Shown here one piece after another: positions 2,240-27,230 of a DNA stretch of 33,885 nt. Source of the DNA: Patescibacteria group bacterium. GTDB lineage: Bacteria; Patescibacteriota; Microgenomatia; UBA12405. The stretch is from the NCBI GenBank assembly GCA_018818185.1, contig JAHISL010000066.1, positions 1 through 33,885 on the forward strand. Direction: 5' to 3'. The translations under genes were made by a program, and so were the position numbers. Numbering within the stretch: the first letter of the stretch is position 1; each line of letters starts with the position of its first letter. The notes under the pieces are model-generated. The model searched no databases. It was given only the letters and a program-made list of their open reading frames with translations, and was not told the origin of the DNA.

Positions 2240-4069
2240 CTATCTTACTATCGGGTAAGCCCCGAGAAAAAGCCTGATGGCTGTAGCCCAAGTAGAATCG
2301 GAGTTTAGACCAGGTTTATCTTGATATTTCTCTTGGATATTTTTTAGCTCTAATTCTAGTCTATGCCTAACAGCTGGCAGAATGTCTATCTTTCTTTCAT
2401 CATGAGTTTCTTTTCCTATACCAAAAAACCCAGCTTTATCAACAACGGTATAAGTGGAGTCACTGTATATTTTTGGTAATTCCGTTTGACGTTGATTTTC
2501 GAGTATATCGTTGCCAGAGATGGAACTGAGCTTGGATGAAAGATTGTTGAAAAATGCATAGACATCTTTGTCGCCATAAAGTTGGGGGTTTTTTGTTCGG
2601 TAGGACTCCTTAAAATCGTTAATGGCTGTTAAAAGTTTTGACCTTGGAGGTATTTCACCGTCCTGGGCTTTAAAACCAGGATAAAACTCACCTAGTAAAT
2701 AAAGAATAGTAGGATTCTTCGCTAGTCCATCCAACATCTCTTGGCTGGCTGTGGCAAGAGCTTCTTTTTTGGCAGTTTCTTGCTGAGCAAGCTTTTCTCT
2801 TTTCTCCTGAGCTTCTTTTTCCTGAGCTTCTCTCCGAGGAGCATCTTGAATCTCAGTCACGGCGGTGTTCCTTTCCCAAAGAAGTCTTGCGGCTGCCTGT
2901 GAGGCAAGTTGGTTTTCATTGGCAGCGTAAATATTTTTTATTTCGTCGTATAAAAAGCCAATATATTTAGAGTGGTTATCCCCCTTAATTTGAAGAATAG
3001 ATTCTGTCTCTGGATCAGTAAGAGCCAGCAAGCCTTTGGCGGCATGAATGCGAAGACCATCAGCGTTAGAATTTGAATCATTAGACTTTATGGTGCGAGC
3101 AGTATCAAGGGTGGCACGAATCATACCCAGGGCTAGGGCTTGAAGTTCTTCGCGATTCTCTTGTCCATCTTTCCGAGATAATCCTCCAATTTTTTCAGCT
3201 AGGGTATCGGCAGACTCGGCGTTGATAAGATTCCAAACCTCCTGGGTAATGAGACCGCCAGTAACTATTTCAATTGTCTCTGGGGTGAGACTGTCTATCT
3301 TTTTACCCTTTAAGATCCCATAGAGATTGTAGCCGGCAGATTCGTGGAGAAGAAGTTTGGCGTTTTTTTGCTCAGGATCTGAAAGAGGAGAGGTCTCTTT
3401 ATCGGCGAGAAGAGTAAGAAGATGGAGGGTAGAATCTTCTTTGGGAAAAGGAGAATTGTGGGTGTCTGAAAGTTGGTAAATATGACTGTCAACAAATCTG
3501 GAAAAAATACCTTTACAGGTATGGAGAGCCTCGGGGCGAGAATCGACGAGGGTGGCAATGTGATCGAATTTAGAAGTACCAGGAACATTCATAAGTTCTT
3601 CTATGGTGCGAGTGGTGCGAAAAAGACCAACAATTCCCTTTTCAGGTTCTTCACCGTCGTATCCATTTATTTGATCAACAAGAGTATCTACCCTTGCCGC
3701 TCCAGTCTGCCTAATCTCGGCCTTTTCAGCTTCTGTCTTTGTGCTAAGAAAATATGCATCTGAGGCGGTGGCATCACTCATAGAGCTGGCGACATTGCGG
3801 GAATAGATATTGGCTTCTGGTAAATAAATATCACCCAGACGGCTTAATTCAGATCCTTCTGGCTTGGGTCCCGGTTCTTGACCGGCATTTTTCAAAATCT
3901 CGGCATTTGTTTCCCAGGCACTAACAGCTTGACTGTGTTCGGAGACTTCAGTAAGAATATTGTTATATAGAGTTAGTAAGGGAGAGGTAGCTTTTGTCTC
4001 GGTTTTAACAACTGATTCAGAGGGGGGTTGGGGTGTTTGATCGATTGCCATATTGATTATTTGTATCAC
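2240..4069 (-). CDS. Orphan soluble protein (~603-609 aa), function unknown, inserted between fusA and tuf
   Basis: Long uninterrupted ORF with coding-like composition, no TM segment and no motif I recognise. The track start at 4069 is a GTG; the in-frame ATG at 4051 (MAIDQTPQ...) is more plausible. It contains a charged EAQEKEAQEKREK stretch. Confidence 0.75.
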   Translation of the reverse strand: MIQIINMAIDQTPQPPSESVVKTETKATSPLLTLYNNILTEVSEHSQAVSAWETNAEILKNAGQEPGPKPEGSELSRLGDIYLPEANIYSRNVASSMSDATASDAYFLSTKTEAEKAEIRQTGAARVDTLVDQINGYDGEEPEKGIVGLFRTTRTIEELMNVPGTSKFDHIATLVDSRPEALHTCKGIFSRFVDSHIYQLSDTHNSPFPKEDSTLHLLTLLADKETSPLSDPEQKNAKLLLHESAGYNLYGILKGKKIDSLTPETIEIVTGGLITQEVWNLINAESADTLAEKIGGLSRKDGQENREELQALALGMIRATLDTARTIKSNDSNSNADGLRIHAAKGLLALTDPETESILQIKGDNHSKYIGFLYDEIKNIYAANENQLASQAAARLLWERNTAVTEIQDAPRREAQEKEAQEKREKLAQQETAKKEALATASQEMLDGLAKNPTILYLLGEFYPGFKAQDGEIPPRSKLLTAINDFKESYRTKNPQLYGDKDVYAFFNNLSSKLSSISGNDILENQRQTELPKIYSDSTYTVVDKAGFFGIGKETHDERKIDILPAVRHRLELELKNIQEKYQDKPGLNSDSTWATAIRLFLGAYPIVR

Positions 4070-6302: not shown

Positions 6303-7529
6303 ATGAAGGCAAAAATATTAGTGGTAGGAGGCGGAATTGGCGGACTTGTAGCCGCTTATCGACTTTTACAAAAAAAATATGCGGTCACTTTGGTGGAGAA
6401 AAATAGTGAATTAGGCGGATTGTTGGGCGCTTTTAAAATTGGAGGCACCTATTTGGAAAAAAGTTACCACCATATTTTTAAGACAGATAAATATATTATC
6501 GAGCTGATTAAAGAATTGGGGTTAGAAAAAAAATTAAAATGGCACGAGGCTAAAACGGCGATTTACTACAAGAAAAAAATATACCCCTTTGCTGGGGCAA
6601 TTGATTTACTTAAATTTGAACCGTTAAATTTGATAGATAAATTAAGATTGGGATTTGTAAAAATTTATTTAGAAAAGGAAAATAATTGGAAAAAGTTTGA
6701 AAATGTTTTGGCCTATGAATGGATGAAAAAGTGGTGTGGTAATAATGCCTATAAAGTTATTTGGGAGCCGCTTTTAAGAGGAAAATTTGGCAAGGAATAT
6801 AAAAAAGTGTCAATGGCTTGGATGTGGGCCCGAATTCATACTAGGGCTAATTCCAGCGAGAAGGGCAAAGAATATTTAGGATATTTAGATGGCGGATTTC
6901 AACAAATTATTGATGAACTTAAACGTAGAATTTTGAAATTGGGGGGAAAGATAGAATTAAATACAAACCTACCCCCTCGCGAGCTCGGGACCTCCCTTGA
7001 GGAAGGGAGGCTAAAAGACTTTAATAGAATAATTAGCTCGGCGCCATTGGAAAAAGTTGATTATTTGGGGGCAGTTACGATGGTGTTTACGTCTAAACAA
7101 AATTTAAGCCGGTATTATTGGCACAATATTAATGATGATAAGTCCCCTTTTCTGGCATTGATTCAACATACAAACCTGGAAGATAAGAAAAAATATGGCA
7201 ATAAACATGTCTATTATCTAGGAACTTATTTACCGCATAATCACCGATACTTTAAATTTGGGGATAAAATAGTTGAAAAAGAATTTTTTAGTTACCTAAA
7301 AAAAATACTTCCAAACTTTAATGAGGAAAAAGTGTTAAAGAAATGGGTGTTTAAATTTAAATATGCCCAGCATGTGGTGGATGTGGGATATAGGAGAAGA
7401 ATTGAAAAGTATAGACATGGTAAGGGGAAAATAATATACATGAATTTTGCACAAATTTACCCAGAAGATAGGGGTATAAACTATGCGGTGAGAGAGGGAG
7501 AAAGAGTAAGTAAATTATTTGAGAATTAA
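6303..7529 (+). CDS. FAD/NAD(P)-binding oxidoreductase (amine-oxidase / phytoene-desaturase-like family)
   Basis: N-terminal Rossmann dinucleotide motif KILVVGGGIGGLVAAYRL...VTLVEKNSELGG...SYHHIF, typical of NAD_binding_8 / amino-oxidase family proteins. The substrate cannot be called. It overlaps the next gene convergently by 15 nt. Confidence 0.65.
   Translation: MKAKILVVGGGIGGLVAAYRLLQKKYAVTLVEKNSELGGLLGAFKIGGTYLEKSYHHIFKTDKYIIELIKELGLEKKLKWHEAKTAIYYKKKIYPFAGAIDLLKFEPLNLIDKLRLGFVKIYLEKENNWKKFENVLAYEWMKKWCGNNAYKVIWEPLLRGKFGKEYKKVSMAWMWARIHTRANSSEKGKEYLGYLDGGFQQIIDELKRRILKLGGKIELNTNLPPRELGTSLEEGRLKDFNRIISSAPLEKVDYLGAVTMVFTSKQNLSRYYWHNINDDKSPFLALIQHTNLEDKKKYGNKHVYYLGTYLPHNHRYFKFGDKIVEKEFFSYLKKILPNFNEEKVLKKWVFKFKYAQHVVDVGYRRRIEKYRHGKGKIIYMNFAQIYPEDRGINYAVREGERVSKLFEN
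6965..7010 (+). repeat. GC-rich palindromic mini-element, copy 1, in frame inside the oxidoreductase CDS
   Basis: AAACCTACCCCCT CGCGAGCTCGGGA CCTCCCTTGA GGAAGGGAGG. The arm CCTCCCTT (6991-6998) pairs perfectly with AAGGGAGG (7003-7010). It shares AAACCYACCCCT, CCTCCCTTGA and GGA.GGGAGG with 27818-27856. Confidence 0.6.
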
Positions 7530-9578
7530 TTCTAATGCCCCAACCTGAATAAGGCTAGAAAATATGTGACTTAAGCTTTCGATATCAAAGGGTAAGAAAT
7601 CATTTGATGTTGTCAAGACTTCGATTAATTCTGATAGTTTTATGTGACACAAATCTCCGGAAGATGTTCTCATTTCAAGTTTATGAAAGTTTGTCTGGGC
7701 TAAGGTAAATGACATGTCCATACGATCTTTGCGTCCAGGAAATTTCATAGAATTCGCAGTTTTTGCCTCACTAACAGGGAGGCTTGGAGGGACAAAAATA
7801 ATTCCAAAGGGTGTTTCCTTTTTTTCTAAAAGCAATTGGTTTTGAGTATAAGAAGAATTTAATTTAAGATGTTGTGAGCGAAGCAACGAAATTGATATAG
7901 CAGTAATTGTTTTTGAATCAGGGATTAGGCCATTTTTAAAGAGATCAATAAGTTCCTTGTTTGATACTTGTCCTGAATGTTTGGTTTTTCTGTTAATTTT
8001 ATTCTCAAGTTCTATTGCCCTGTTTACGTTTTCTGCGTCGAAAAAATTAGCATCCCACTTAAAAGATGGATTGTACCACTGTGTTTGGTCAATTCTTTCA
8101 ACAATTTTAGGAAAAATGTTAGGATATGTTTCAGACGTACTGCCAAAAGATAGGTTAATTATATCCAAAAAGTCAGGTCCAGATAAAACGGAAGGTCCAG
8201 TTAGCAGGGTTGATGTAGAAGTTTCCTCAGTGTCAAAAAAAGTTTTGGGATATGACAAGTCGACCCCGAATCCATTAACTCCAAAAAGGTAATTATTCTG
8301 GAGCCTAAGCACAGTATTGTCGCCATCTAAACTTGAGAGAACCAATGTGTTTGAGACGGTATTTGGTTTCTTCTCTTTTAAAGGATCCTGAGAAGTTAAG
8401 AATATCTCCTTCTCGCCTTTACTGGAGACAAATTTAGTAAAATGAAATTTTGATTCTTTTCGAATGTTTACATTTTCTGGAGGAAGCTTAACTTTACGAG
8501 TTACTAAGGCCACATTATCCATTTTCTGATCTTTGAGAGTGGTGGGTCTGATTTCATAAGGTATTGATTGATCAGGAGAGAAAATGGTAATCAACTTAGT
8601 ACAAGAATCTTGCCATTTTTCCCGGTTTGTCAACAAAATCTCAGCTGTGCTCATTGCCAAAGAAGGGCGACCATAAAAGTCCATTCTATTGTAATGATAA
8701 GCAGAAAGTATGCCCACCGAATATGGACCATTAATGGGAAAAACAGAATGAATTTTATAAACAGAATCACTCCGATTAAGAATCTGTCCGTGTTCATGGT
8801 CAATTAATATCCTTATTGGTGGACAAGAAACAATAGAAGGCAAGGGTGGAACATATTTTTCTAAACTTTTTGAAAGGTTTTTCCATGCTACAAGTTCATG
8901 ATCAGCCCTTTCGATCTGGTGGACATTCCAGGGAATCAACGGTAGCAGAGGATATGATTTGTCACGGTGACTGCTGCCAAAGATACTTAAATTTCGATAT
9001 CGTCCCATAATTTCATTGGCATCTAAATCTGTAGCTGAGACAATTCTTTTGGTGTCAGGAACATTATCTGTAATAACCACGTCAAGGGGCGAAAAGCTTT
9101 TATATGGTAACTGATGTTCTGACTTAATACCTGAAATTTCGACAATTGTAAGAGGTTTGTGATCTTGAATGCATTTTATAAAACGATGAAGTCCATCAAC
9201 AATATTTGAGTTTTTAAAATCAACTTTCTCATCTGAATCTAATATCTCAACCAAGGGAGGAGTAATAATTGCTCCGTCTTTTAATTGATAAAGTCCATCA
9301 ACCTCGTTTAGGGGTTTACCAATTTCCTCTTTACACTTAGCATCAAGAGAAGGATATGATTCTAAGTTTTGCTGTAACGCATAGAGAGCTATGGCTCCAT
9401 AATCTGCAAGCCTATCGGGGGGAATAGTAACGATCTTTATGGTGGCGTGTTCGTAGGGCTTGGTCGTGCCATCAACAAGAGTGACCTTTCTTAAAGCGTT
9501 AACCAATTTTTGCCTTTCTGGTGCAAGTGAAAATTCTTGAGAATTAATACTATTTGGTTGACTATCAAGAATGGCCAT
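7515..9578 (-). CDS. Large multidomain protein (687 aa) with N-terminal ParB/sulfiredoxin-like (DGxHR) domain; C-terminal ~530 aa unassigned
   Basis: Residues ~45-150 read TIKIVTIPPDRL...PPLVEILDSDEKVDFKNSNIVDGLHRFIKCIQDHKPLTIVEI. This is the strand - DGxHR - helix - strand arrangement of ParB N-terminal / Srx / DUF262-type domains, with the DGLHR codons at 9183-9197. There is no Walker A, no TM segment and no SD. The existence of the CDS is high confidence; the domain call is moderate. Confidence 0.6.
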   Translation of the reverse strand: MAILDSQPNSINSQEFSLAPERQKLVNALRKVTLVDGTTKPYEHATIKIVTIPPDRLADYGAIALYALQQNLESYPSLDAKCKEEIGKPLNEVDGLYQLKDGAIITPPLVEILDSDEKVDFKNSNIVDGLHRFIKCIQDHKPLTIVEISGIKSEHQLPYKSFSPLDVVITDNVPDTKRIVSATDLDANEIMGRYRNLSIFGSSHRDKSYPLLPLIPWNVHQIERADHELVAWKNLSKSLEKYVPPLPSIVSCPPIRILIDHEHGQILNRSDSVYKIHSVFPINGPYSVGILSAYHYNRMDFYGRPSLAMSTAEILLTNREKWQDSCTKLITIFSPDQSIPYEIRPTTLKDQKMDNVALVTRKVKLPPENVNIRKESKFHFTKFVSSKGEKEIFLTSQDPLKEKKPNTVSNTLVLSSLDGDNTVLRLQNNYLFGVNGFGVDLSYPKTFFDTEETSTSTLLTGPSVLSGPDFLDIINLSFGSTSETYPNIFPKIVERIDQTQWYNPSFKWDANFFDAENVNRAIELENKINRKTKHSGQVSNKELIDLFKNGLIPDSKTITAISISLLRSQHLKLNSSYTQNQLLLEKKETPFGIIFVPPSLPVSEAKTANSMKFPGRKDRMDMSFTLAQTNFHKLEMRTSSGDLCHIKLSELIEVLTTSNDFLPFDIESLSHIFSSLIQVGALELILK

Positions 9579-9593
9579 TTTCTATATTATAAT

Positions 9594-10274
9594 ATGGATA
9601 TGGTTTTCGAGTTCGAAAAGAATAAATGGTGGCAAACGTCTGATGAAAAAACAATTTCAGTGCTGATTGGGGAGGCGAAAATAAATAGCAAGTTTAAGGA
9701 TTACCTTGAAAATTTGTCGACCAAAGAGGGTTTAAAGATTAAAAAGATAGAAAGCTGTGAAATTGTCGGTAATTTTATCTTCTTGAAAGTGGCGTCTGAA
9801 GTTGAACTGACAAATCAACTGGTTGAAAAGGAAATGGTTCTGACTCGGACAGAGAAAACTTCTGGAGGAAGGTGCCTACTGTCTTTTGAAGTAAATGATA
9901 GAAAAATGATGGTTAGCGATTCTGGAGAAAGTATAGTAACTTTTTTCCCAGATTTTTCTAAGGAAAAGTTGTGCTATTTCCCAAAAAAAATCGAGAATGA
10001 ACTTGGGAAAATATTGGGAGAAAGGTGGTCGGTAAAAAAAATTGAGGATTTAGGAAGCGTTTATCCTTTTTTAGAAATTACACCTGAAAAAGTACCCATT
10101 TTTTGGATAGAATTGTCATGTAGTCAGAAAATAAATATAGAAATAGATAAAAGTGAATATGTTAAAAAATACGATGAACTGTCTGAGTTATTGGTTAAAC
10201 TTAATGATGCAATTGCTTTGTCAATTGTTGGGCGAAAGATGCATCTAGAAAAGAGAAATGGACGAAATAATTGA
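9594..10274 (+). CDS. Nudix-fold paralog 1 (226 aa), shortened, Nudix box eroded
   Basis: It aligns with the next two ORFs at KNKWWQTSD, SFEVND, IEDLGSVYP and the C-terminal NDAIALSIVGR. No GX5EX7REUXEE motif is present. The track start at 9537 is a TTG reaching into the divergent gene; ATG 9594 or ATG 9600 is more plausible. Confidence 0.55.
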   Translation: MDMVFEFEKNKWWQTSDEKTISVLIGEAKINSKFKDYLENLSTKEGLKIKKIESCEIVGNFIFLKVASEVELTNQLVEKEMVLTRTEKTSGGRCLLSFEVNDRKMMVSDSGESIVTFFPDFSKEKLCYFPKKIENELGKILGERWSVKKIEDLGSVYPFLEITPEKVPIFWIELSCSQKINIEIDKSEYVKKYDELSELLVKLNDAIALSIVGRKMHLEKRNGRNN

Positions 10275-11013
10275 AAATATTAAAAAGTTAAGCTGGTTTA
10301 ATAATAGCCCTGGGGAAATCCAGGAAAAGTTGTTAAATGCACCTGAGAGTTTTGCTGGGTTTATGAAAGAATTGTCTGAAAGACCGGAACTTATAGGAAA
10401 TATCAAAATGCTTAGACTTATAGCGATAGAATTTGGAAACCACTTTGCCTTGCCAGTTTTTGAAGTCAAAAATGAAAAAAGCGGATTAGTTTACGAATAT
10501 GAATATATTGGAAGAAAACGGGGCCCTCACCACAGCGTTCGAGGATTAATTGTACTTGAAAGTGAGGGGGAAGCAAAATATTTTATCGTTAGAAAAAGTG
10601 TAAGATTTGCGATTGGAAAAGAAGTGTGGGAATCGGTAGGAAGCATATATAACCCCGAAAAAGAAATACGACAAGATAAATATAAATTTAAAAACTATCT
10701 TGAAAATGAAATAGCCGAACAATTTAAACTACCCAAGATCTCTTTTGATAGGTTTTATGATTTAGGAATGGTTTATCCTGATGTGGGAATGTCTTCTCAC
10801 GAAGTATCTTTGTTTGCGGGAGTAATTAAAGAGAACGATTGGAATGCAATGATAGAGTTACTTAAAGATAAAATAGTTTCTGCAAAAAACTACGAGTATG
10901 AATATATCTTTGTGCCAGCTGATGAGCTTTTGGAATATTTGACAAAAACAAACGATGCCCATGCACTGGCGATCTTTGGAAGATTACAGGCCTTAAATGT
11001 AATAAAATTGTAG
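10258..11013 (+). CDS. Nudix-fold paralog 2 (251 aa), GX5E retained but REUXEE lost
   Basis: KLSWFNNSP; VFEVKNEKSG...RKRGPHHSVRGLIVLESEGEAKYFIVRKSVRFAIGKEVWESVGSIYNPE aligns with paralog 3. Further matches are DLGMVYPDVG and the C-terminal NDAHALAIFGR. It overlaps paralog 1 by 17 nt, which suggests translational coupling. Confidence 0.6.
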   Translation: MDEIIENIKKLSWFNNSPGEIQEKLLNAPESFAGFMKELSERPELIGNIKMLRLIAIEFGNHFALPVFEVKNEKSGLVYEYEYIGRKRGPHHSVRGLIVLESEGEAKYFIVRKSVRFAIGKEVWESVGSIYNPEKEIRQDKYKFKNYLENEIAEQFKLPKISFDRFYDLGMVYPDVGMSSHEVSLFAGVIKENDWNAMIELLKDKIVSAKNYEYEYIFVPADELLEYLTKTNDAHALAIFGRLQALNVIKL

Positions 11014-11021
11014 CCTGAATA

Positions 11022-11049
11022 TTGACACTATAAGATAATTTGATATAAT
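11022..11049 (+). promoter_or_regulatory. Near-consensus sigma70-type promoter with extended -10
   Basis: TTGACA (11022-11027), a 16-nt spacer, then TGATATAAT (11041-11049). It lies 9 nt after the stop of paralog 2. Confidence 0.7.
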
Positions 11050-11055
11050 CCTATC

Positions 11056-11212
11056 AGACTATTAAGTCGGTGAATAAACGAGCCAAAAGCTCGGACATTA
11101 ATAAATAGATCTGTTATTTGCACAAAGCTTGAACAAGTTTTTGAACGCCTGAATTGTATTTCCTATCAATCTAAAACTTATATTAAAACGCCCCGTTTGC
11201 GGGGTATTTTTT
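11056..11212 (+). ncRNA. Candidate ~155-nt small RNA, or terminator-containing 5' leader of the third Nudix gene
   Basis: It is bounded by the consensus promoter and an intrinsic terminator. It has no ATG-initiated ORF and an internal hairpin CGAGC-CAAAA-GCTCG (11079-11093). Its 5' end, TATCAGACTATT, is complementary to 11258-11269. Confidence 0.45.
11187..11212 (+). terminator. Rho-independent terminator
   Basis: AAAACG CCCCG TTTG CGGGG T A TTTTTT. The stem is 11191-11195 / 11200-11204 plus a G-U pair, followed by a 6-T run at 11207-11212. The preceding A-run makes it potentially bidirectional. Confidence 0.8.
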
Positions 11213-11228
11213 GGTATCTAGTTTTAGT

Positions 11229-11272
11229 GGGTATCAGATTGTGGCCTATAAATAGGCAATAGTCTGATACCC
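11229..11272. promoter_or_regulatory. Nested dyad symmetry (operator-like or RNA hairpin) upstream of the third Nudix gene
   Basis: GGGTATCAGA (11229-11238) and TCTGATACCC (11263-11272) form a perfect 10-bp inverted repeat. They enclose the palindrome GCCTAT-AA-ATAGGC (11244-11257), which contains a TATAAA -10-like hexamer. Confidence 0.55.
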
Positions 11273-11339
11273 ATCTGGGTAGAAAAATTTTACGCGAAAG
11301 GGGAAAGTAACTATACAAAAATAGAAAAGGGAGTAATCA

Positions 11340-12236
11340 ATGATATATGTGAGTGATTTGGAGTTATTGCTTATACTTGTTGTTTTAAGTATAGGCTGTT
11401 GTATTGTCCTACTGGCCGTTGGTCTAGTAGGTTTTTTGTTGTACTTCAAGAACCGAAAAAGGAGAATGACCATGGAAAAGCTTAGTGAAAAACGTATGGC
11501 TCAAATTGAAATGCTTGAAAAGCATGACTGGTGGAACGCCACCGATGCAGCGATCCGTCTGAAAATTGCTTATCTCCCTGAAAAAAAGTGGGACGGAGCA
11601 ATTGAGGATCTGATCAACCGGACAGACATTGTCGGTGGACTGGAGCAGAAACGAATCATTCGCTTTGAAACCGACGCCGGCCAGTTTGGTGGTTTGATCA
11701 ACTTTGAGGTAGTTAACCACCACGACGGCGACAAAGTTCAGAGTTACATGTACTGGACTTGGCGTAACGGACCAGCAAGTGGCGCAAAGGGTACCGTCTT
11801 TGTAGCCAGTAACGGTGTTATCACCCATTTCGTCCGACTTTATGCGGAAAAATTCGCAATCGGAGGCGAGGTGGTTGACGACTCAATCGGCGGATTTGGC
11901 GCAGTTGGCGAGGATTCGTTGACGACCTGGATACGTGAGCTGACGGAAGAGTTGCACACCGAACTCAAGATCATCAAGGTTGTAGATCTTGGACCAGTAC
12001 GCACCGATTCCGGATTAGGCAATATGATGCCAAATGTTTTCTTTGCCATTGTCGATGGTGAAGGTTTGGATCTGAGCGCTGATAGCCCACTTTTGGACCG
12101 ACCGGAGGTTGAGTCCAAGTATACCCTGGCGCCTATCGCCGAATACCCCCAATTCTTACGCGAGACCGATTCGGGCTATGCTCTCCAGGTGGCTGGACGC
12201 ATGCAAGGACACGGTTTTTCAGTAAGTCTCACATAA
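11340..12236 (+). CDS. Membrane-anchored Nudix hydrolase (298 aa), paralog 3, catalytic box intact
   Basis: The Nudix box GFGAVGEDSLTTWIRELTEELHT (11892-11960) fits GX5EX7REUXEE exactly; only the trailing GU deviates. The N-terminal helix LELLLILVVLSIGCCIVLLAVGLVGFLLYF is followed by KNRKRR. GGGAG lies 6 nt before ATG 11340. A second SD, AAGGAG (11459-11464), lies 7 nt before the in-frame ATG at 11472. Confidence 0.8.
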   Translation: MIYVSDLELLLILVVLSIGCCIVLLAVGLVGFLLYFKNRKRRMTMEKLSEKRMAQIEMLEKHDWWNATDAAIRLKIAYLPEKKWDGAIEDLINRTDIVGGLEQKRIIRFETDAGQFGGLINFEVVNHHDGDKVQSYMYWTWRNGPASGAKGTVFVASNGVITHFVRLYAEKFAIGGEVVDDSIGGFGAVGEDSLTTWIRELTEELHTELKIIKVVDLGPVRTDSGLGNMMPNVFFAIVDGEGLDLSADSPLLDRPEVESKYTLAPIAEYPQFLRETDSGYALQVAGRMQGHGFSVSLT

Positions 12237-12254
12237 CAGATCTACCTGAAGGAT

Positions 12255-12287
12255 GGGGGCTAATTGGCTTTGGTCAAATTAGCCCCC
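12255..12287 (+). other. Perfect 11-bp GC-capped hairpin 19 nt after the Nudix-3 stop (U-tract-less terminator or stabiliser?)
   Basis: GGGGGCTAATT (12255-12265), an 11-nt loop, then AATTAGCCCCC (12277-12287). No T-run follows. Confidence 0.5.
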
Positions 12288-12312
12288 ACTGGAGGGCACC
12301 GAATAAAAGTCA

Positions 12313-12377
12313 CGTCCCTGGACGTAAGAAATGCTGCTGGCCCAACGGCCAGCAACCAATAACTTACACCAGGGACG
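12313..12377 (+). other. 65-nt rod-like GC-rich stem-loop (candidate structured RNA or palindromic element)
   Basis: CGTCCCTGG-AC-GTAAG (12313-12328) pairs with CTTAC-AC-CCAGGGACG (12363-12377), giving 9 + 5 bp around a 2x2 internal loop. The apical hairpin is TGCTGGCC-CAAC-GGCCAGCA (12335-12354). Confidence 0.5.
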
Positions 12378-12406
12378 AACAATACTTTTAATTTTTAAAA
12401 TAAAAC

Positions 12407-12428
12407 AAGTAAAAAGTTACTTATTTTT
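12407..12428 (+). terminator. Weak AT-only hairpin plus T-run
   Basis: AAGTAA-AAAG-TTACTT followed by ATTTTT. The stem is weak. Confidence 0.3.
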
Positions 12429-12442
12429 AATATAAACTAAAA

Positions 12443-12607
12443 ATGTTGACAAAAATTGAAATTGTTAATTTGGTTAATGAAAAAAATTTATCTGAGAAAT
12501 CTCTTCTGTATGTCAAACATATTTTGCGGAATTTTGAAGAAAAGGAAATTGTTTCAGAAGAAAAAATTATCGCAATTAAAAAAATACTTAGTCTCGAACA
12601 AAGCTAA
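12443..12607 (+). CDS. Possible 54-aa small protein (below the ORF-track cutoff)
   Basis: My translation is MLTKIEIVNLVNEKNLSEKSLLYVKHILRNFEEKEIVSEEKIIAIKKILSLEQS. TATAAA (12431-12436) lies 6 nt before the ATG, which is leaderless geometry. The 3' end overlaps the convergent 105-aa ORF by 20 nt. There is no homology evidence. Confidence 0.3.
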   Translation: MLTKIEIVNLVNEKNLSEKSLLYVKHILRNFEEKEIVSEEKIIAIKKILSLEQS

Positions 12608-12905
12608 AGCGAACAGATGAATCTTGACCTTCATTTCCAAAACGAGTTACTCTGATACTTTGAGTGGGGAGAATTAAGACAACATTTGAACCGCTAAGAA
12701 AGGCATCCTTTACTTGTACAACTTCACGATAGTCGGAATGAAAACTCATTACAACTCGATCATCTTGGGATGCCATCAATCCAAGGGTGCAAAAAGTATC
12801 TCTTAATTGTTTATATTCTTTAGAAGAAGTTTCGTTTTCACCTGAAGGGATTGAACCACGCTTGGGGCAACCTGGACAATTTCTTGTTTCGTATTTTAAA
12901 GTCAT
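12588..12905 (-). CDS. Hypothetical 105-aa protein
   Basis: An ORF downstream of rfbD with an N-terminal CPGCP and no recognisable family. TGATATAAT (minus strand, 12919-12911) lies 5 nt upstream of the ATG. Confidence 0.5.
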   Translation of the reverse strand: MTLKYETRNCPGCPKRGSIPSGENETSSKEYKQLRDTFCTLGLMASQDDRVVMSFHSDYREVVQVKDAFLSGSNVVLILPTQSIRVTRFGNEGQDSSVRFSFVRD

Positions 12906-12928
12906 AGACGATTATATCATTAGTGCTA

Positions 12929-13798
12929 TTAAATACATCTTTTCATATCCTCTAAACCCTCCTGAAGGGTTTTTGTGGTGATGCCAAGAGTTTTGATCTT
13001 ATCATTGTTGAGAGCGGCGTTTTTGGCAAAAGGACGGGCATTTTCAGTTTTCAAATAATCTGCCAGTTTACTAGGCATAATTTTGGAATTATCTAGCCCG
13101 AATACTTGTGCAATCATCTGGGCCATCTCAAATGGTGACTGAGAGGAGGAGCCGACAAGATGATAGATACCGACAGGTTTTTGCTCGAAGAATATTTTTA
13201 GGCCAGCAGCAATGTCATCGATATAGGTTGGAGTAGTGATTTGATCGTCAAAAAGATTGAGGGTGTCGCCGTTTTCTATTTTTTGCTTTATTTTACGGAC
13301 AATATCAACTTTAAGATCATACTTGGCCCGATAAGGAAAGGCCAGACGAGCGATAGATGCAGAGATACCAGAATTTAAGACAACTTTCTCGGCCATAGCC
13401 TTGGTTTCACCGTACCATTCGATGGCAGAGGTAGGATCGTCCTCGAGATAGGGAGTCGGTTTTTGACCGTCGAAAACATAATCGGTGGAAATGTGAATTA
13501 AATATTTGCCGTACTTTTGGCATAAGTTAACAATATTTTGTGTACCAACAACATTTAGCTGATAACAAAGACCGCTCTGATCCCCTTTTTGATCCCAGGC
13601 AGCATTGGTATCAGTGAAAGCGGCAAGATGTAAAACTGCGTCAGCGTCTGGGTGAGCAGCAAAGACAGTTTCTAATTGCTGAGGATCAAGGATACTGATT
13701 CCGGTCTCAAGAGAAATGTTAATAAATTCAATATCGGGATTAAGCTCGATAATTCGTGAACCAACTAAGCCAGTAAGGCCGGTACCAATAACTTTCAT
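12929..13798 (-). CDS. rfbD: dTDP-4-dehydrorhamnose reductase (RmlD-type SDR)
   Basis: 289 aa with the N-terminal glycine-rich GTGLTGLVGSR, YGETKAMAE (YxxxK) and RmlD-like length. It is positioned after rfbB-rfbC. Confidence 0.75.
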   Translation of the reverse strand: MKVIGTGLTGLVGSRIIELNPDIEFINISLETGISILDPQQLETVFAAHPDADAVLHLAAFTDTNAAWDQKGDQSGLCYQLNVVGTQNIVNLCQKYGKYLIHISTDYVFDGQKPTPYLEDDPTSAIEWYGETKAMAEKVVLNSGISASIARLAFPYRAKYDLKVDIVRKIKQKIENGDTLNLFDDQITTPTYIDDIAAGLKIFFEQKPVGIYHLVGSSSQSPFEMAQMIAQVFGLDNSKIMPSKLADYLKTENARPFAKNAALNNDKIKTLGITTKTLQEGLEDMKRCI

Positions 13799-13825: not shown

Positions 13826-14386
13826 TTACCACTTGATAGTTTTTAGCTCTGCTTCGATATCTTTGAGTATGGGCCAGGTTTTATCTTTTTCGGATAGAAT
13901 GGGGTTGGCGGCCAGCCAGGCAACATTAATGTCGGGATCGTTCCACAAGACACCACCCTCAGATTCTTTGTTGTAGAAATTACTGCACTTGTACTGAAAA
14001 TCAGCTGTTTCGGACAAGACATAAAAGCCATGAGCAAAACCAGCTGGAATAAAAAACATATTTTTATTTTCTGCTGTAAGATGAGCCGAATCCCATTTAC
14101 CAAAGGTGGGAGAATCGGGACGAATGTCGACAGCAACGTCAAGAACCTCACCCTGAGAAACTCGAATTAATTTGGCTTGAGCAAAGGGAGGTTTTTGAAA
14201 GTGAAGACCACGAAGAACAGCCTTACCTGAACGGGAATGATTATCTTGAACAAAATCGACGTCAATACCAGCATCTAAAAATTCTCTTTTACTGTAGGTT
14301 TCCATGAAAAATCCACGATCGTCACCGAAAACTTGGGGTTCAATTAAAATAAGACCAGGGATAGACAGTTGGGTAAATTTCATCAT
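13826..14386 (-). CDS. rfbC: dTDP-4-dehydrorhamnose 3,5-epimerase
   Basis: FGDDRGFFMETY, RGLHFQKPPFAQAKL, GFAHGFYVL and DPDINV are cupin RmlC signatures. The track start at 14404 is a TTG; the ATGs at 14386 and 14383 (MMKFTQL) are more plausible. Confidence 0.9.
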   Translation of the reverse strand: MMKFTQLSIPGLILIEPQVFGDDRGFFMETYSKREFLDAGIDVDFVQDNHSRSGKAVLRGLHFQKPPFAQAKLIRVSQGEVLDVAVDIRPDSPTFGKWDSAHLTAENKNMFFIPAGFAHGFYVLSETADFQYKCSNFYNKESEGGVLWNDPDINVAWLAANPILSEKDKTWPILKDIEAELKTIKW

Positions 14387-14410
14387 ATTAAGTAATGATA
14401 TCAAATGTCA

Positions 14411-16752: not shown

Positions 16753-17187
16753 TTAACACAATTTGACTCGAGCCACTATATTTCCGTTTTGTTGAAAATA
16801 GTCTAGTTTGCCACCTATTTGATCTAACCTTCTTCGAGAACCGATAACACCAGCACCACCATCTGGCATAGCGTCTCGAAATGGTTTAGTTGATCTTGGT
16901 GTGCTGCTATTTAGGTTTCCAAGGATAGTTTTAATTTCATCTGGAGAAAAGGTGACGTCATCAGAGACCTTTATTTCTTTGGTCGAAATTTTTATCGAAA
17001 CAGTGCCTGCTGGACGATTTGGTCTTTCGACACAATTTCCAATCAATTCCCCCATCACAGATGGTAATGTTTGAGGGTATCTATCGATAATGTCATGATC
17101 ACCATAAATTTGAAACAAAAGGTCGGGGTAGTACTTTTGGTAAAGGCTACAAATTTCACTTAGGCCAGACATGCTGAATTTTAACAT
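16753..17187 (-). CDS. Small stand-alone GHKL / HATPase_c-like protein (tentative)
   Basis: 144 aa with ELIGNCVE (N-box-like E...N), VSDDV and GGAGVIGSRRRL (G2-box-like). The motifs are degenerate, so the family call is weak. Confidence 0.4.
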   Translation of the reverse strand: MLKFSMSGLSEICSLYQKYYPDLLFQIYGDHDIIDRYPQTLPSVMGELIGNCVERPNRPAGTVSIKISTKEIKVSDDVTFSPDEIKTILGNLNSSTPRSTKPFRDAMPDGGAGVIGSRRRLDQIGGKLDYFQQNGNIVARVKLC

Positions 17188-25241: not shown

Positions 25242-26123
25242 TTATTCAGTGCAGCTAAATTCTTTTGGAAAACTGTATTTTAACAGGAGAGAACATTTTG
25301 GGGGTTCTTGACCACCGGTAACAATTTGCCAGGTTCCGTTGATTTTAGCGGCCCAATAGATCGCACCACCACCGGTAGTGTAACTGAAGGCGACAGAGGC
25401 AAAATTCCCAACTATTTTTGACTGACCAATGATGACACCATCCGATTCTTTAGTTGACTCGGAAGAAGCCGTAGATTTGACAAGATTTACGAGTTCGGAA
25501 GGTAGATCACCAGTGTAGTTAAAGCTAAAGGTGGAGAGAATTTGATTGATAGTTGACTGAATGGCTTTCTTGTCTATGTTATCACTAGGATAATACACAT
25601 TAGAAATAATTTGATAATAACTTTCACCTAATTTAAAAACTATGATGTTTGCGTTATTCATACCTCCTTGTTCATATTGGTAAGCAGTTTGATTGTCGAT
25701 AGTAATTTTATTAATTGTGTTGGGATGCGTAAAGTTATCTTGATCATTAATAAAATCTTCTAAGGAAGAGTATTTTTTTTCAATTTCATTATTTTTTCCA
25801 ATAAAAATATCGTCTGGTATTTCTGACTGCGGATTAGCTTGATCTTTTTTTGTTTTAGGTGAATTGAGAGAGATATACCTTTCAGTGGATGGTGAAATTG
25901 ACCAGTCATTCGGGTATTTAAATTCGAATAAATTGTTATTGAATGTTTTCCAGTCGGCGGTAGAAGCAATGATGGGGACAGCGGTAGGTTCGATTGTGGG
26001 AACTGTATTTGTGATTTGGGTGGCGGCGGTTGGTGGTTTTATGAAGTTTAAATAAAGAAGAACGAGAGTTGAGGTAAAGAAAATGGCCAGAAGAATGACA
26101 AGGGCAAGGGTTGATTTTTTCAC
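25242..26123 (-). CDS. Secreted or membrane-anchored protein (293 aa), paralogous C-terminal domain with the upstream gene
   Basis: GTG start with an N-terminal signal/anchor KKSTLALVILLAIFFTSTLVLLY. The domain begins FEFKYPNDW and ends INQILSTFSF, matching FSFSYPTDL ... VDQILSTFKL of the 367-aa protein. Confidence 0.7.
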   Translation of the reverse strand: MKKSTLALVILLAIFFTSTLVLLYLNFIKPPTAATQITNTVPTIEPTAVPIIASTADWKTFNNNLFEFKYPNDWSISPSTERYISLNSPKTKKDQANPQSEIPDDIFIGKNNEIEKKYSSLEDFINDQDNFTHPNTINKITIDNQTAYQYEQGGMNNANIIVFKLGESYYQIISNVYYPSDNIDKKAIQSTINQILSTFSFNYTGDLPSELVNLVKSTASSESTKESDGVIIGQSKIVGNFASVAFSYTTGGGAIYWAAKINGTWQIVTGGQEPPKCSLLLKYSFPKEFSCTE

Positions 26124-26126
26124 AGG

Positions 26127-27230
26127 TTATTGAAGTTTAAAGGTAGAGAGAATTTGATCAACTATTTTGTCACTGGTATCCAGACTTTTTGATGATCTAA
26201 CCATGATAAGAAGGTTTAGATCCTTTTTTATTTCACCACTGTATATGTAAACATCTTTGGTTTTGTCAAAATTTTCATCAGGTGTATTTGTGGCTTTGAT
26301 TGTGGAAGTTAAACCTTTGCCGGCTTGGTAAGCAAGATCATAATCTTTGTTGGAAAATATTGGACCAAAACCATCCGGATATACCGTACCCACCGTTAAA
26401 GTTAATAAAAAAGTTTTGTCCTCATTTTCAAGGGAAAGATTCTCGTGGATAGTAGTCGTCGTAAGTTGTTTTGGTAGTGAATCAACTAAAGTTAAGTCAG
26501 TAGGGTAAGAAAAGGAAAAATTAAAGACAGGATTTGAATAGTTTTTAATACTGGCAGAATTAGAGGCGTCACAGGCCATTTCGGTACAAGAAATGGTTAG
26601 GTCAGAATTACAAGTGCAGGTATTGCAACCATCGGTAGCAGTAAAGCTTTGATTAACCGCATATTTTTGATCGTTAATCTCACAAAAAGCATATGATGGA
26701 GGGAGGGAGGGTGAAACATCAACTACTGGCGTGTTGGAATCGGACAAGGGAAGAGATTTTTGGGAATTTACAAGAGATAAAACTATGGAAACAAGAACTC
26801 CGACAAAAATTAAAAGTGAAAAAAAGAAGAGATACTTAAAAAAATTGTTGTTTTTGGGAACTGAAGTAAGAGAAGGTGTTTCATCATCTAGGGGGACGTC
26901 GAACTTGACTTCATAATTTGATGGTGAAACAGGAGGAAGATCTGGAAGTGGTTGAGTGTCTGAATTGGCCTCAATTTTTAGCTCAGGGTCAACATCTTGA
27001 AGCATAACTGGAGGGGTTTCGGGTACTGTAGGTGTTTCGACGGCTTCGGGCGCAGGAACTGTTGGTTCTGGATTTGTTGGTAGGGGTTCTTTTGGGAAAT
27101 CCTCTGTTTTTTCTACTGGAACGGGACTGGCTTGAGGTTCGGAATCTATGGGAGCTTCAGTTGAAGCTAAACTAGCGGCGTATTTATCCAAGATGTCTTG
27201 GTAATTTGGTTCCGGAGTTGTATCTGGCAT
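26127..27230 (-). CDS. Type-II membrane protein (367 aa): Pro-rich cytoplasmic N-terminus, TM, six-Cys module, conserved C-terminal domain
   Basis: The TM segment is FFKYLFFFSLLIFVGVLVSIVLSLV. The six-Cys module is CEINDQKYAVNQSFTATDGCNTCTCNSDLTISCTEMAC (26571-26684). The C-terminal domain is shared with the 293-aa neighbour. Confidence 0.7.
   Translation of the reverse strand: MPDTTPEPNYQDILDKYAASLASTEAPIDSEPQASPVPVEKTEDFPKEPLPTNPEPTVPAPEAVETPTVPETPPVMLQDVDPELKIEANSDTQPLPDLPPVSPSNYEVKFDVPLDDETPSLTSVPKNNNFFKYLFFFSLLIFVGVLVSIVLSLVNSQKSLPLSDSNTPVVDVSPSLPPSYAFCEINDQKYAVNQSFTATDGCNTCTCNSDLTISCTEMACDASNSASIKNYSNPVFNFSFSYPTDLTLVDSLPKQLTTTTIHENLSLENEDKTFLLTLTVGTVYPDGFGPIFSNKDYDLAYQAGKGLTSTIKATNTPDENFDKTKDVYIYSGEIKKDLNLLIMVRSSKSLDTSDKIVDQILSTFKLQ

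Follow-up and report, generated by a model that had tools for sequence, protein, structure and literature searches.

What does a 687-residue protein with a ParB/sulfiredoxin-type N-terminus do when it is encoded head to head with a set of strongly diverged Nudix-like genes inside a housekeeping region? This question is raised by a 33,885-nucleotide (nt) stretch of DNA, referred to here as the window. Going by its header, we take its source to be a Patescibacteria group bacterium (GCA_018818185.1, contig JAHISL010000066.1). Elongation factor G (EF-G) assigns the window to Candidatus Shapirobacteria (Patescibacteria), with ~70 species-representative loci at 75-93% identity. The cassette in question consists of the giant gene BIG on the minus strand and the genes P1, P2 and P3 on the plus strand (Table 1), and the open reading frame (ORF) list of the window bears out the sizes, positions and strands that a first-pass annotation of the sequence had given for all four. 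Fetched related loci carry numbers beginning with L, and homologous proteins carry four-digit numbers such as P0002. The strongest finding of our analysis is that ParB-CE, the N-terminal domain of BIG, appears to be functionally linked to Nudix or other phosphohydrolases, as judged from gene order and gene fusions.

The ParB-CE domain of BIG and its partners

To assign domains, homologs were collected first and then used for family profiles and a structure model. Single-sequence scans against Pfam, NCBIfam, PADLOC and PHROGs gave no significant match for any of the four proteins, so that assignments needed such profiles and models. Read naively, these scans would have refuted the first-pass annotation by the criterion that it had set itself for ParB/Srx and Nudix matches. 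For BIG, a direct hmmscan against Pfam found no match at E ≤ 1, and the protein lies below Pfam's own threshold for PF24392. Searches of the PDB by phmmer with BIG, P2 and P3 (P1 was left out) returned nothing significant, and PDB searches with a profile of the paralogs and with a two-sequence N-terminal profile were empty.

A word-indexed search recovered one BIG homolog. When 1.84 billion representatives were searched exhaustively by HMMER with a two-sequence profile, nine BIG family clusters were recovered, namely the window protein, P0002, three more full-length proteins, three fragments and the distant P0021. The same search returned ~33 proteins, mostly 180-220 residues long, that match BIG residues ~20-205 at E-values from 2e-9 to 9e-4. 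All 15 of these that were scanned against Pfam are PF24392 proteins (E down to 2e-19). An hhalign comparison of BIG N-termini with ParB-CE-only sequences gave a probability of 99.9% (E 2.6e-37, 181 columns), and P0021 matches PF24392 at E 0.001. On this profile evidence, the ParB/sulfiredoxin-type core noticed in the first-pass annotation is a PF24392 ParB-CE domain. Across a 32-sequence ParB-CE alignment, Y42, Y66, E111 (of PPIVE), G129 and R132 are invariant and P107, P108, D128, H131, P174, R178 and R195 are nearly so, which indicates that the putative nucleotide site is intact. The previously noted DGLHR codons encode BIG residues 128-132. In the PDB, the ParB-CE profile matches best to SbnI, a serine kinase with a ParB/Srx fold; the match runs through the VIDGVHR motif and is marginal (E 0.01). 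An AlphaFold model of BIG has a mean predicted local distance difference test score (pLDDT) of 56.6, and Foldseek with this low-confidence model found no ParB/Srx match and no match at all at E ≤ 0.001. BIG shows no match to PF02195 (ParBc) or to a helix-turn-helix domain, no GERRxRA box and no ParA neighbor. With DGLHR in place of GERRxRA, and with Nudix paralogs and a flavin adenine dinucleotide (FAD) oxidoreductase gene as neighbors, it is not a canonical ParB of a ParABS system. Our literature search found no paper describing PF24392, no published function for ParB-CE and no source for the Pfam name "ParB CE".

A profile census of all fetched loci places BIG-family genes at seven distinct sites (the window, L001/L002, L007, L008, L009, L027 and L063). 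At 7/7 of these, a divergent P1-like gene lies at near-zero distance, and a P2-like gene follows wherever the contig reaches far enough. BIG homologs thus adjoin Nudix-family genes at every site, the outcome of a neighborhood census that the first-pass annotation had proposed. The diverged homologs in L027 and L063 were detected only by a profile search of fusA loci, and a pattern scan of GTDB species-representative genomes for BIG found none. Spacing between BIG and P1 is 20 nt in L007 and 17 nt in L009, and the two genes overlap in L063. In the window, the palindrome TATTATAATA between the two start codons reads as a -10 box (TATAAT) in either direction. It lies ~7 nt from the BIG ATG, abuts the first ATG of P1 and stands ~6 nt before the second (9600). 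Such a bidirectional -10 box suggests overlapping divergent promoters, from which BIG and P1 mRNAs would be leaderless or near-leaderless. P1 orthologs adjoin BIG in L007, L009, L027 and L063. P2-like and P3-like genes occur as pairs without BIG in L003 and probably in L004, L005 and L095, and P3-like genes stand alone in L028 and L042, which argues for BIG, P1 and P2 as the conserved core and P3 as an optional add-on. The third gene varies by locus and is related to nucleotides at most loci that possess one: a P3-type Nudix gene, an L076-type Nudix gene (L007), a gene for a Nudix-like 256-residue protein (L063) or an NT5C-like nucleotidase gene (L027). L009 has no third gene beside P2; there, a leader copy downstream of BIG precedes a small ORF and a gene for a 344-residue protein without fold assignment.

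Fusions repeat the association. P0044 joins ParB-CE to NUDIX, P0024 and P0043 join HD to ParB-CE, and two ParB-CE genes lie directly upstream of genes for dNK/thymidylate-kinase-like proteins, a hint that ParB-CE and nucleotide kinases are paired repeatedly. The ties to Nudix, HD and nucleotide-kinase partners, seen among neighbors and in fusions, suggest that ParB-CE acts on nucleotide-derived small molecules, and this would be a first working hypothesis for the domain.

The ~480 residues of BIG beyond ParB-CE match no known family, in keeping with the earlier remark that this part holds no placeable motif: there is no match in Pfam and none by sequence in the PDB, and a C-terminal profile searched against the PDB was likewise empty. 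The top Foldseek matches of the BIG model are Nudix hydrolases and the double-Nudix enzyme EvaA, all non-significant (best E ~0.4, none below 0.37). We also considered the C-terminus as a fourth copy of the paralogs. An hhalign comparison gave only a short W-motif likeness (IERIDQTQWYNPSF versus IEMLEKHDWWNATD, E 0.025-0.3), and a greedy collinear alignment reached only E 0.06-0.09; neither is significant. A fourth copy, or a Nudix-like fold in this region, is therefore a lead only.

Several related loci carry further genes worth recording. L093 (8001-10662) has an HD+ParB-CE gene and, after it, an HD+dNK/thymidylate-kinase gene; their neighbors are Dam methylase, SACS/NOV_C and ResIII/RE_endonuc genes. 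On a contig of JGI 3300047160, a gene for a 386-residue ParB-CE protein is directly followed by a dNK-like kinase gene. The gene after P2 in L027 (1364-1915) resembles NT5C 5'-nucleotidases (Pfam E 0.0017). A 505-residue protein common to L027 (6468-7985) and L025 (3826-5343) has Nudix-box-like motifs by eye and no Pfam match. Runs of small proteins without Pfam matches lie downstream of P3-like genes (L003:2633-6992, L005:2040-5664, L007:100-303, L009:5900-6080). One of them, of ~52 residues (MLTK.EI...NYE....F..L..IC.LIIKK), recurs in L003, L005 and L009 and has a look-alike in L007. These small proteins could be further parts of a larger cluster that are absent from the window.

Table 1. 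Coordinates of cassette features in the window, with leader copies at related loci in the last row.
Feature	Position	Strand	Description
BIG, 687 residues	7515-9578	minus	N-terminal ParB-CE domain and ~480 residues without fold assignment
ParB-CE domain	8949-9515	minus	Pfam PF24392, ParB/Srx type; BIG residues ~22-210
ParB-CE motifs of BIG	PPLVE 9246-9260; DGLHR 9183-9197; YRNLSIFGSS 8970-8999	minus	PPLVE is residues 107-111
Conserved C-terminal region of BIG	7518-8351	minus	BIG residues ~410-687
C-terminal blocks of BIG	QTQWYNPSF 8061-8087; AKTANSMK 7743-7766; RMDMSFTL 7701-7724; LPFDIESLSHIFSSL 7551-7595	minus	Conserved among homologs
Divergent intergenic region, 15 nt	9579-9593		Between BIG and P1 start codons; TTTCTATATTATAAT, containing palindrome TATTATAATA
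P1, 226 residues	9594-10274	plus	Strongly diverged, box-degenerate Nudix-family paralog; ATG at 9594
P2, 251 residues	10258-11013	plus	P3 paralog at full length, without catalytic REUXEE
P3 promoter	11022-11049	plus	TTGACA, 16 nt, TG-n-TATAAT; sole 12/12 match in 7300-13000; conserved in all related spacers
5' leader, ~65 nt	11056-11120	plus	Three short hairpins, conserved; candidate cis-regulatory RNA
Intrinsic terminator	11190-11215 (hairpin 11190-11205)	plus	GCCCCG-TTTG-CGGGGT and T-run; equivalents of hairpin and T-run in L003, L004, L005, L007, L009
22-bp hairpin	11228-11273	plus	Inverted repeat between terminator and P3 ribosome-binding site; at other loci a hairpin of different sequence in the same place
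P3, 298 residues	11340-12236	plus	N-terminal transmembrane helix and ADP-ribose-pyrophosphatase-like Nudix domain with intact box
P3 transmembrane helix	11358-11447	plus	Residues ~7-36, followed by KNRKRR; segment kept in P0004, P0005, P0007
Leader-unit copies at related loci	L003:1223-1292; L004:468-537; L005:663-733 and 3667-3733; L007:1321-1388; L009:5675-5740; L033:601-645; L063:1041-1106; L095; L096

The Nudix paralogs and the P3 transcription unit

The three plus-strand proteins are paralogs, as had been proposed. BLASTP aligns P2 with P3 at E 6e-20 over 248 residues and P1 with P2 at E 6e-8, far beyond chance; P1 and P3 alone give 0.017, and all three unite with their orthologs in one profile family. 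Orthologs keep the blocks described earlier, which we confirmed in the window proteins: W[WF], DLG.V and the D(A/S)..AL.(I/V).GR helix at the C-terminus. Only P3 retains the catalytic box, again in agreement with the first-pass annotation: residues 185-207 (nt 11892-11960; GFGAVGEDSLTTWIRELTEELHT) fit GX5EX7REUXEE, with H and T rather than G and U at its last two positions. P1 and P2 lack RE and EE at the box, and five P1 and seven P2 orthologs are all degenerate there. The P2 orthologs are 33-58% identical and share a highly conserved C-terminal tail, NDAHALAIFGRLQALNVIKL. Since the box is degenerate in all orthologs while other blocks are kept, P1 and P2 are pseudo-enzymes of long standing and not freshly decayed genes.

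Against PF00293, P3 scores 12.2 bits where the gathering cut-off is 21.1 (E 0.19), with the match located exactly at the box. In a scan of its ortholog set P0004/P0005 against the Pfam NUDIX model, one protein reaches E 2.2e-7, and P0005 and P0007 have precomputed PF00293 matches that are flagged as weak. Only a handful of the 5.8 billion protein clusters searched are relatives of P3. When P3 was modeled with AlphaFold on a seven-sequence family alignment (pLDDT 76), the model matched 162 PDB chains at E ≤ 0.001 in Foldseek. At the top are human NUDT5, E. coli NudF, Klebsiella ADP-ribose pyrophosphatase and YffH (E 3e-9 to 1e-7, probability 1.0, ~200 aligned columns). The nucleoside-diphosphate (NDP)-sugar hydrolases YffH (a GDP-mannose hydrolase) and Bd3179 are among the matches, with scores nearly equal to those of the ADP-ribose pyrophosphatases. 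Judged by this model, P3 has a Nudix fold of the ADP-ribose pyrophosphatase type. The layout suggested earlier for all three proteins extends to P2 by full-length homology to P3 and to P1 by the family profile. A hydrophobic segment followed by KNRKRR indicates, by the positive-inside rule, that P3 is most likely membrane-anchored with a cytoplasmic Nudix domain. The guanine-plus-cytosine (GC) content of P3 is 0.48 versus 0.34 for P1 and P2. Recent transfer was considered as the cause and rejected, since P3-like genes are GC-rich at every locus checked (window 11340-12236, L003:1505-2410, L004:741-1640, L005:941-1837), with values of 0.48-0.53 versus 0.34-0.40 for adjacent P2-like genes and flanks, a difference of 10-15 points.

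The first-pass annotation had described the three genes as tandem, and P3 turns out not to share an operon with P1 and P2. The P1 and P2 reading frames overlap by 17 nt, whereas P3 is set apart by a 326-nt spacer that contains, in order, a promoter, a leader, a terminator, the 22-bp hairpin and a ribosome-binding site. From these signals, P3 is transcribed as a unit of its own. The same set of signals follows a P2-like gene and precedes the next one in L003, L004, L005, L007, L063, L095 and L096; in L006 it follows a P2-like gene at the contig end. Additional copies are present in other places. Searched with a covariance model of the leader (R1), 1.29 Mb of Shapirobacteria loci yielded 14-15 copies. 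Among 11 copies with a readable downstream gene, this gene encodes a Nudix-fold protein in eight, an HD-like protein in one and a protein without fold assignment in two. The products include P3-like Nudix proteins, a membrane-anchored L048-like Nudix protein (L005), L076-type Nudix proteins (L007, L033), the Nudix-like 256-residue protein (L063) and a membrane-anchored protein with HD-like motifs (L096). Within the leader helices, 92.9% of cells are paired, 6/16 pairs are changed on both sides and 0/500 shuffles reach the observed score, figures that amount to moderate covariation support and come from only 13 distinct rows in an alignment fitted to the model. Rfam gave no leader match at gathering thresholds and only hairpin-type chance matches at E ≤ 10. 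Structured leaders with terminators are typical of metabolite-controlled genes. Given the lack of an Rfam match and the recurrence before Nudix or HD-like genes, the P3 leader is a candidate for a new riboswitch or attenuator.

A variable genomic slot and the role of the cassette

The usual gene order in Shapirobacteria is rpsL-rpsG-LytR_C protein-rfbB-rfbC-rfbD, the FAD oxidoreductase gene on the opposite strand, and fusA-tuf. Four loci (the window, L009, L027 and L063) have the BIG cassette immediately upstream of the oxidoreductase gene, and in two of them, the window and L009, rfbD borders it on the other side. In L027, rfbC and rfbD were not detected and rfbB is the nearest upstream rfb gene; the L063 contig ends before any rfb gene. 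The junction between rfbD and the oxidoreductase gene is shorter than 60 bp in ~20 of ~50 related species. In other species, the junction is occupied by rfbA, an RmlD-like gene, HAD hydrolase genes, a radical-SAM gene or unassigned genes. The cassette is thus an accessory block within the rpoBC-rpsLG-rfb-fusA-tuf region, as had been thought, and with the slot so often empty it is not a housekeeping cluster common to all relatives at this position. It is absent even from relatives at 90-92% EF-G identity (L010, L074, L011, L012 and L039). At a second junction, between the LytR_C gene and rfbB, L028 carries a P3-like gene, as do L042 and the metagenome contig L003, where it is divergent from rfbB. 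In L037, L044, L048, L076 and L084, this junction holds a gene for a canonical 232-residue Nudix protein (Pfam E 3.9e-9) that hhalign identifies as a homolog of the P3 family (95.6%, E 1.2e-8). Between the window and L063, identity is 93% for EF-G, 73% for the FAD oxidoreductase, 41% for P2 and 23% for P1, and BIG is matched by profile only (74 bits). Between the window and L009, whose contig lacks EF-G, it is 56% for the oxidoreductase, 58% for P2, 35% for P1 and 34% for BIG. As a separate observation, rfbC of the window (13826-14404) is 84% identical to that of L010 and only 37-38% identical to those of L012 and L039, all three being 90-92% identical in EF-G; such mosaic rfb genes indicate a region prone to recombination.

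We propose that the cassette is an accessory module, restricted to Shapirobacteria, whose task is to detect and break down a nucleoside-diphosphate-X compound (ADP-ribose type or NDP-sugar type), and we give this reading a probability of roughly 45%. The ParB-CE domain of BIG would bind a nucleoside triphosphate (NTP); its role could be that of a phosphotransferase, as in SerK, SbnI and sulfiredoxin, or that of a ParB-like switch gated by NTP. P1 and P2 would bind the nucleotide ligand and leave it intact. Dimerization by domain swapping is obligate in ADP-ribose pyrophosphatases, and P1 and P2 may therefore pair with each other, with P3 or with BIG as regulatory subunits. As the ligand accumulates, the leader would turn on the hydrolase gene, and P3 would then cleave the compound at the cytoplasmic face of the membrane. 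One hydrolase, two degenerate copies and a ParB-like effector in a conflict system had been the first-pass interpretation. Its hydrolase with an intact box in P3 alone, its degenerate copies and its ParB-type domain stand; no effector domain was recognized, and the defense role finds no support in any effector, PADLOC, PHROGs, phage or mobile-element signal. We rank a metabolic module above defense because effector, phage and database signals are missing, the neighborhood is fixed, the companion genes concern nucleotides or nucleotide sugars, and control of the hydrolase gene resembles that by a riboswitch. Several observations weigh against this ranking. The cassette diverges far faster than its neighbors (window versus L063), is patchy among close relatives and has a similarity pattern that conflicts with that of the flanking genes, and one HD+ParB-CE gene lies in a restriction-modification/SACS island. 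The C-terminal ~480 residues of BIG, moreover, could hide an effector. All these points would suit a conflict system at least equally well. The small number of rows behind the leader structure is a further point against the metabolic reading.

An anti-phage or inter-bacterial conflict system is accordingly the alternative that we take most seriously, and we consider it unlikely. In such a system, BIG would be the effector or switch and depend on NTP, P1 and P2 would act as sensors or decoys for a nucleotide signal, and P3 would clear this signal or deplete a nucleotide. Empty slots, absence from close relatives, extreme divergence discordant with the flanks and the long life of pseudo-enzymes beside a paralog with an intact box would all suit such a system. 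ParB/Srx-fold modules recur in defense systems in the literature, and the island gene mentioned above sits beside ResIII/RE_endonuc, SACS/NOV_C and Dam methylase genes. The searches for defense signals point the other way. PADLOC-DB 2.0 yielded no significant match, its only listing being P1 against ThsB (E 0.0098, 13.6 bits), which we judge to be chance, and the scan thus agrees with the earlier statement that this is no named defense system. PHROGs had no match for the window proteins, and no cassette relatives were found in phage genomes or viral contigs. Pfam scans recognized no nuclease, TIR, Sir2, pore or protease effector domain. No integrase, transposase or tRNA was found at the cassette, and flanking repeats were limited to short matches at chance level. 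In addition, the rfb/str neighborhood is constant at all loci with enough flank (window, L009, L027, L063), unlike varied defense islands, and a riboswitch-like leader on a hydrolase gene would be unusual for immune genes. A more far-reaching proposal, which we regard as possible yet doubtful, leaves the choice between signaling and conflict aside. BIG, P1 and P2 would form an undescribed ParB-CE/pseudo-Nudix signaling or conflict machine unique to episymbiotic Patescibacteria, with the C-terminal half of BIG as a new effector or a degenerate Nudix domain. The P3 leader would represent a new riboswitch class that senses the nucleotide-derived ligand of this machine and controls a Nudix/HD regulon, several members of which are membrane-anchored.

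In the window, L009 and L027, the cassette sits between rfb genes and the gene for the FAD oxidoreductase, a position that raises the further question of whether it serves nucleotide-sugar or envelope-glycan metabolism tied to dTDP-rhamnose (rfbBCD). NDP-sugars would then be the compounds that the Nudix proteins hydrolyze or sense, and BIG would act at the membrane, where it regulates or phosphorylates an intermediate that is a sugar or linked to lipid. Divergent Nudix genes, P3-like or canonical, stand beside rfbB in L003, L028, L042, L044, L048, L076 and L084, the same slots carry rfbA, RmlD-like, GT2 glycosyltransferase and HAD hydrolase genes, YffH and Bd3179 are among the structural matches of P3, and P3 has a membrane anchor. 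We nevertheless find this account improbable. Nearly all Shapirobacteria carry rfb genes in their str region, and the proximity may thus be coincidence. ParB-CE relatives elsewhere are tied to HD, Nudix and dNK-type kinases and not to sugar genes, and the top structural matches of P3 are ADP-ribose pyrophosphatases. Least probable of all, with only a slight chance of being correct, is that there is no integrated system, P1 and P2 being decaying duplicates of a resident Nudix gene and BIG an unrelated, fast-evolving orphan neighbor. The loss of the box in P1 and P2, the strong divergence of P1 and the rarity of the BIG family would agree with this. Such decay is hard to reconcile with intact frames and a constant divergent layout in seven loci at only 20-58% protein identity, with the strong conservation of P2 blocks including the C-terminal tail, or with independent ParB-CE+Nudix fusions. 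The sensing and turnover of a nucleoside-diphosphate-X compound remains our preferred reading.

Comparison with known systems and further features of the window

PF24392 proteins, which occur as stand-alone proteins of ~200 residues and as fusions, share with BIG the PY, YVL, PPIVE, (I/V)DGxHR, KR and YR(D/N)L..GS motifs. BIG differs from them by its ~480 extra residues and by being partnered with two pseudo-Nudix genes instead of being fused to Nudix. The link to Nudix and HD that the fusions make in cis thus reappears as the same theme in trans. The small-molecule kinases SbnI and SerK, and sulfiredoxin, have a ParB/Srx domain and, as ParB-CE proteins do, lack both a ParA partner and a role in parS binding. 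SbnI and ParB-CE have a strand and the (V/I)DG(V/L)HR motif in common, within the marginal match (E 0.01) noted above. According to the literature, the broad fold is shared by DndB, DpdB and the DUF262 domain of GmrSD/SspE, where it serves as an NTP-dependent module in roles other than chromosome segregation. Their partner genes are absent at the cassette, which has no PADLOC match. A 2025 survey of the ParB-CTPase fold does not mention Nudix or ParB-CE.

P3 resembles NudF, NUDT5 and YffH/NudK in its superposable model, in its GX5EX7REUXEE box and in the N-terminal beta subdomain of the dimeric subfamily. It is set apart from these enzymes by an identity of 13-20%, the N-terminal membrane anchor, a helical W-W motif region of ~50 residues and a box without the terminal G-U. 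NrtR, an inactive Nudix sensor that binds ADP-ribose, offers a possible analogy for P1 and P2, which would likewise have kept the Nudix fold and lost the box. NrtR has a winged-helix DNA-binding domain, whereas P1 and P2 have none and have no Pfam match. Riboswitches upstream of Nudix genes exist, for example ykkC subtype 2 variants. The P3 leader is likewise conserved and structured, contains an intrinsic terminator and lies directly upstream of Nudix/phosphohydrolase genes; it differs in having no Rfam match and a conserved part of only ~65 nt with three short hairpins.

Among the components discussed here, the ParB-CE Pfam model, the Nudix superfamily and the database entries for ParB-CE fusions to Nudix and HD are already known. 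The BIG family, its obligatory pairing with two pseudo-Nudix proteins and the leader RNA appear to be undescribed. The ParB/Srx fold is recognized as a versatile NTP module far beyond chromosome segregation. Two pseudo-Nudix proteins beside a paralog with an intact box would provide a clean case for dead enzymes turning into regulatory subunits. An orphan riboswitch candidate from Patescibacteria, with their minimal metabolism and scavenged nucleotides, comes with obvious ligand candidates. If the cassette is not a defense system, it would also illustrate that a rare, rapidly diverging cassette of nucleotide enzymes need not be an immune system.

Other parts of the window hold ORFs that stand apart from the cassette. 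Three in the ribosomal-protein/rpoBC neighborhood have no Pfam match at E ≤ 1e-5 (16753-17187, 144 residues; 25242-26123, 293 residues; 26127-27230, 367 residues). The gap of ~690 nt between P3 and rfbD (12237-12928) contains a minus-strand ORF of 105 residues (12588-12905) for which no homologs were found, and a GC-rich, terminator-like hairpin at 12333-12356. Matches of ~2.7 kb to fusA were considered as inserts and rejected, as in the loci examined they are joined cross-hits of fusA and tuf. Between fusA and tuf of the window lies a minus-strand ORF of 609 residues (2240-4069) for which neither Pfam nor a tblastn search of ~80 related fusA loci gave a match. Relatives differ in the distance between fusA and tuf, and this ORF may be another accessory insertion in the str operon.

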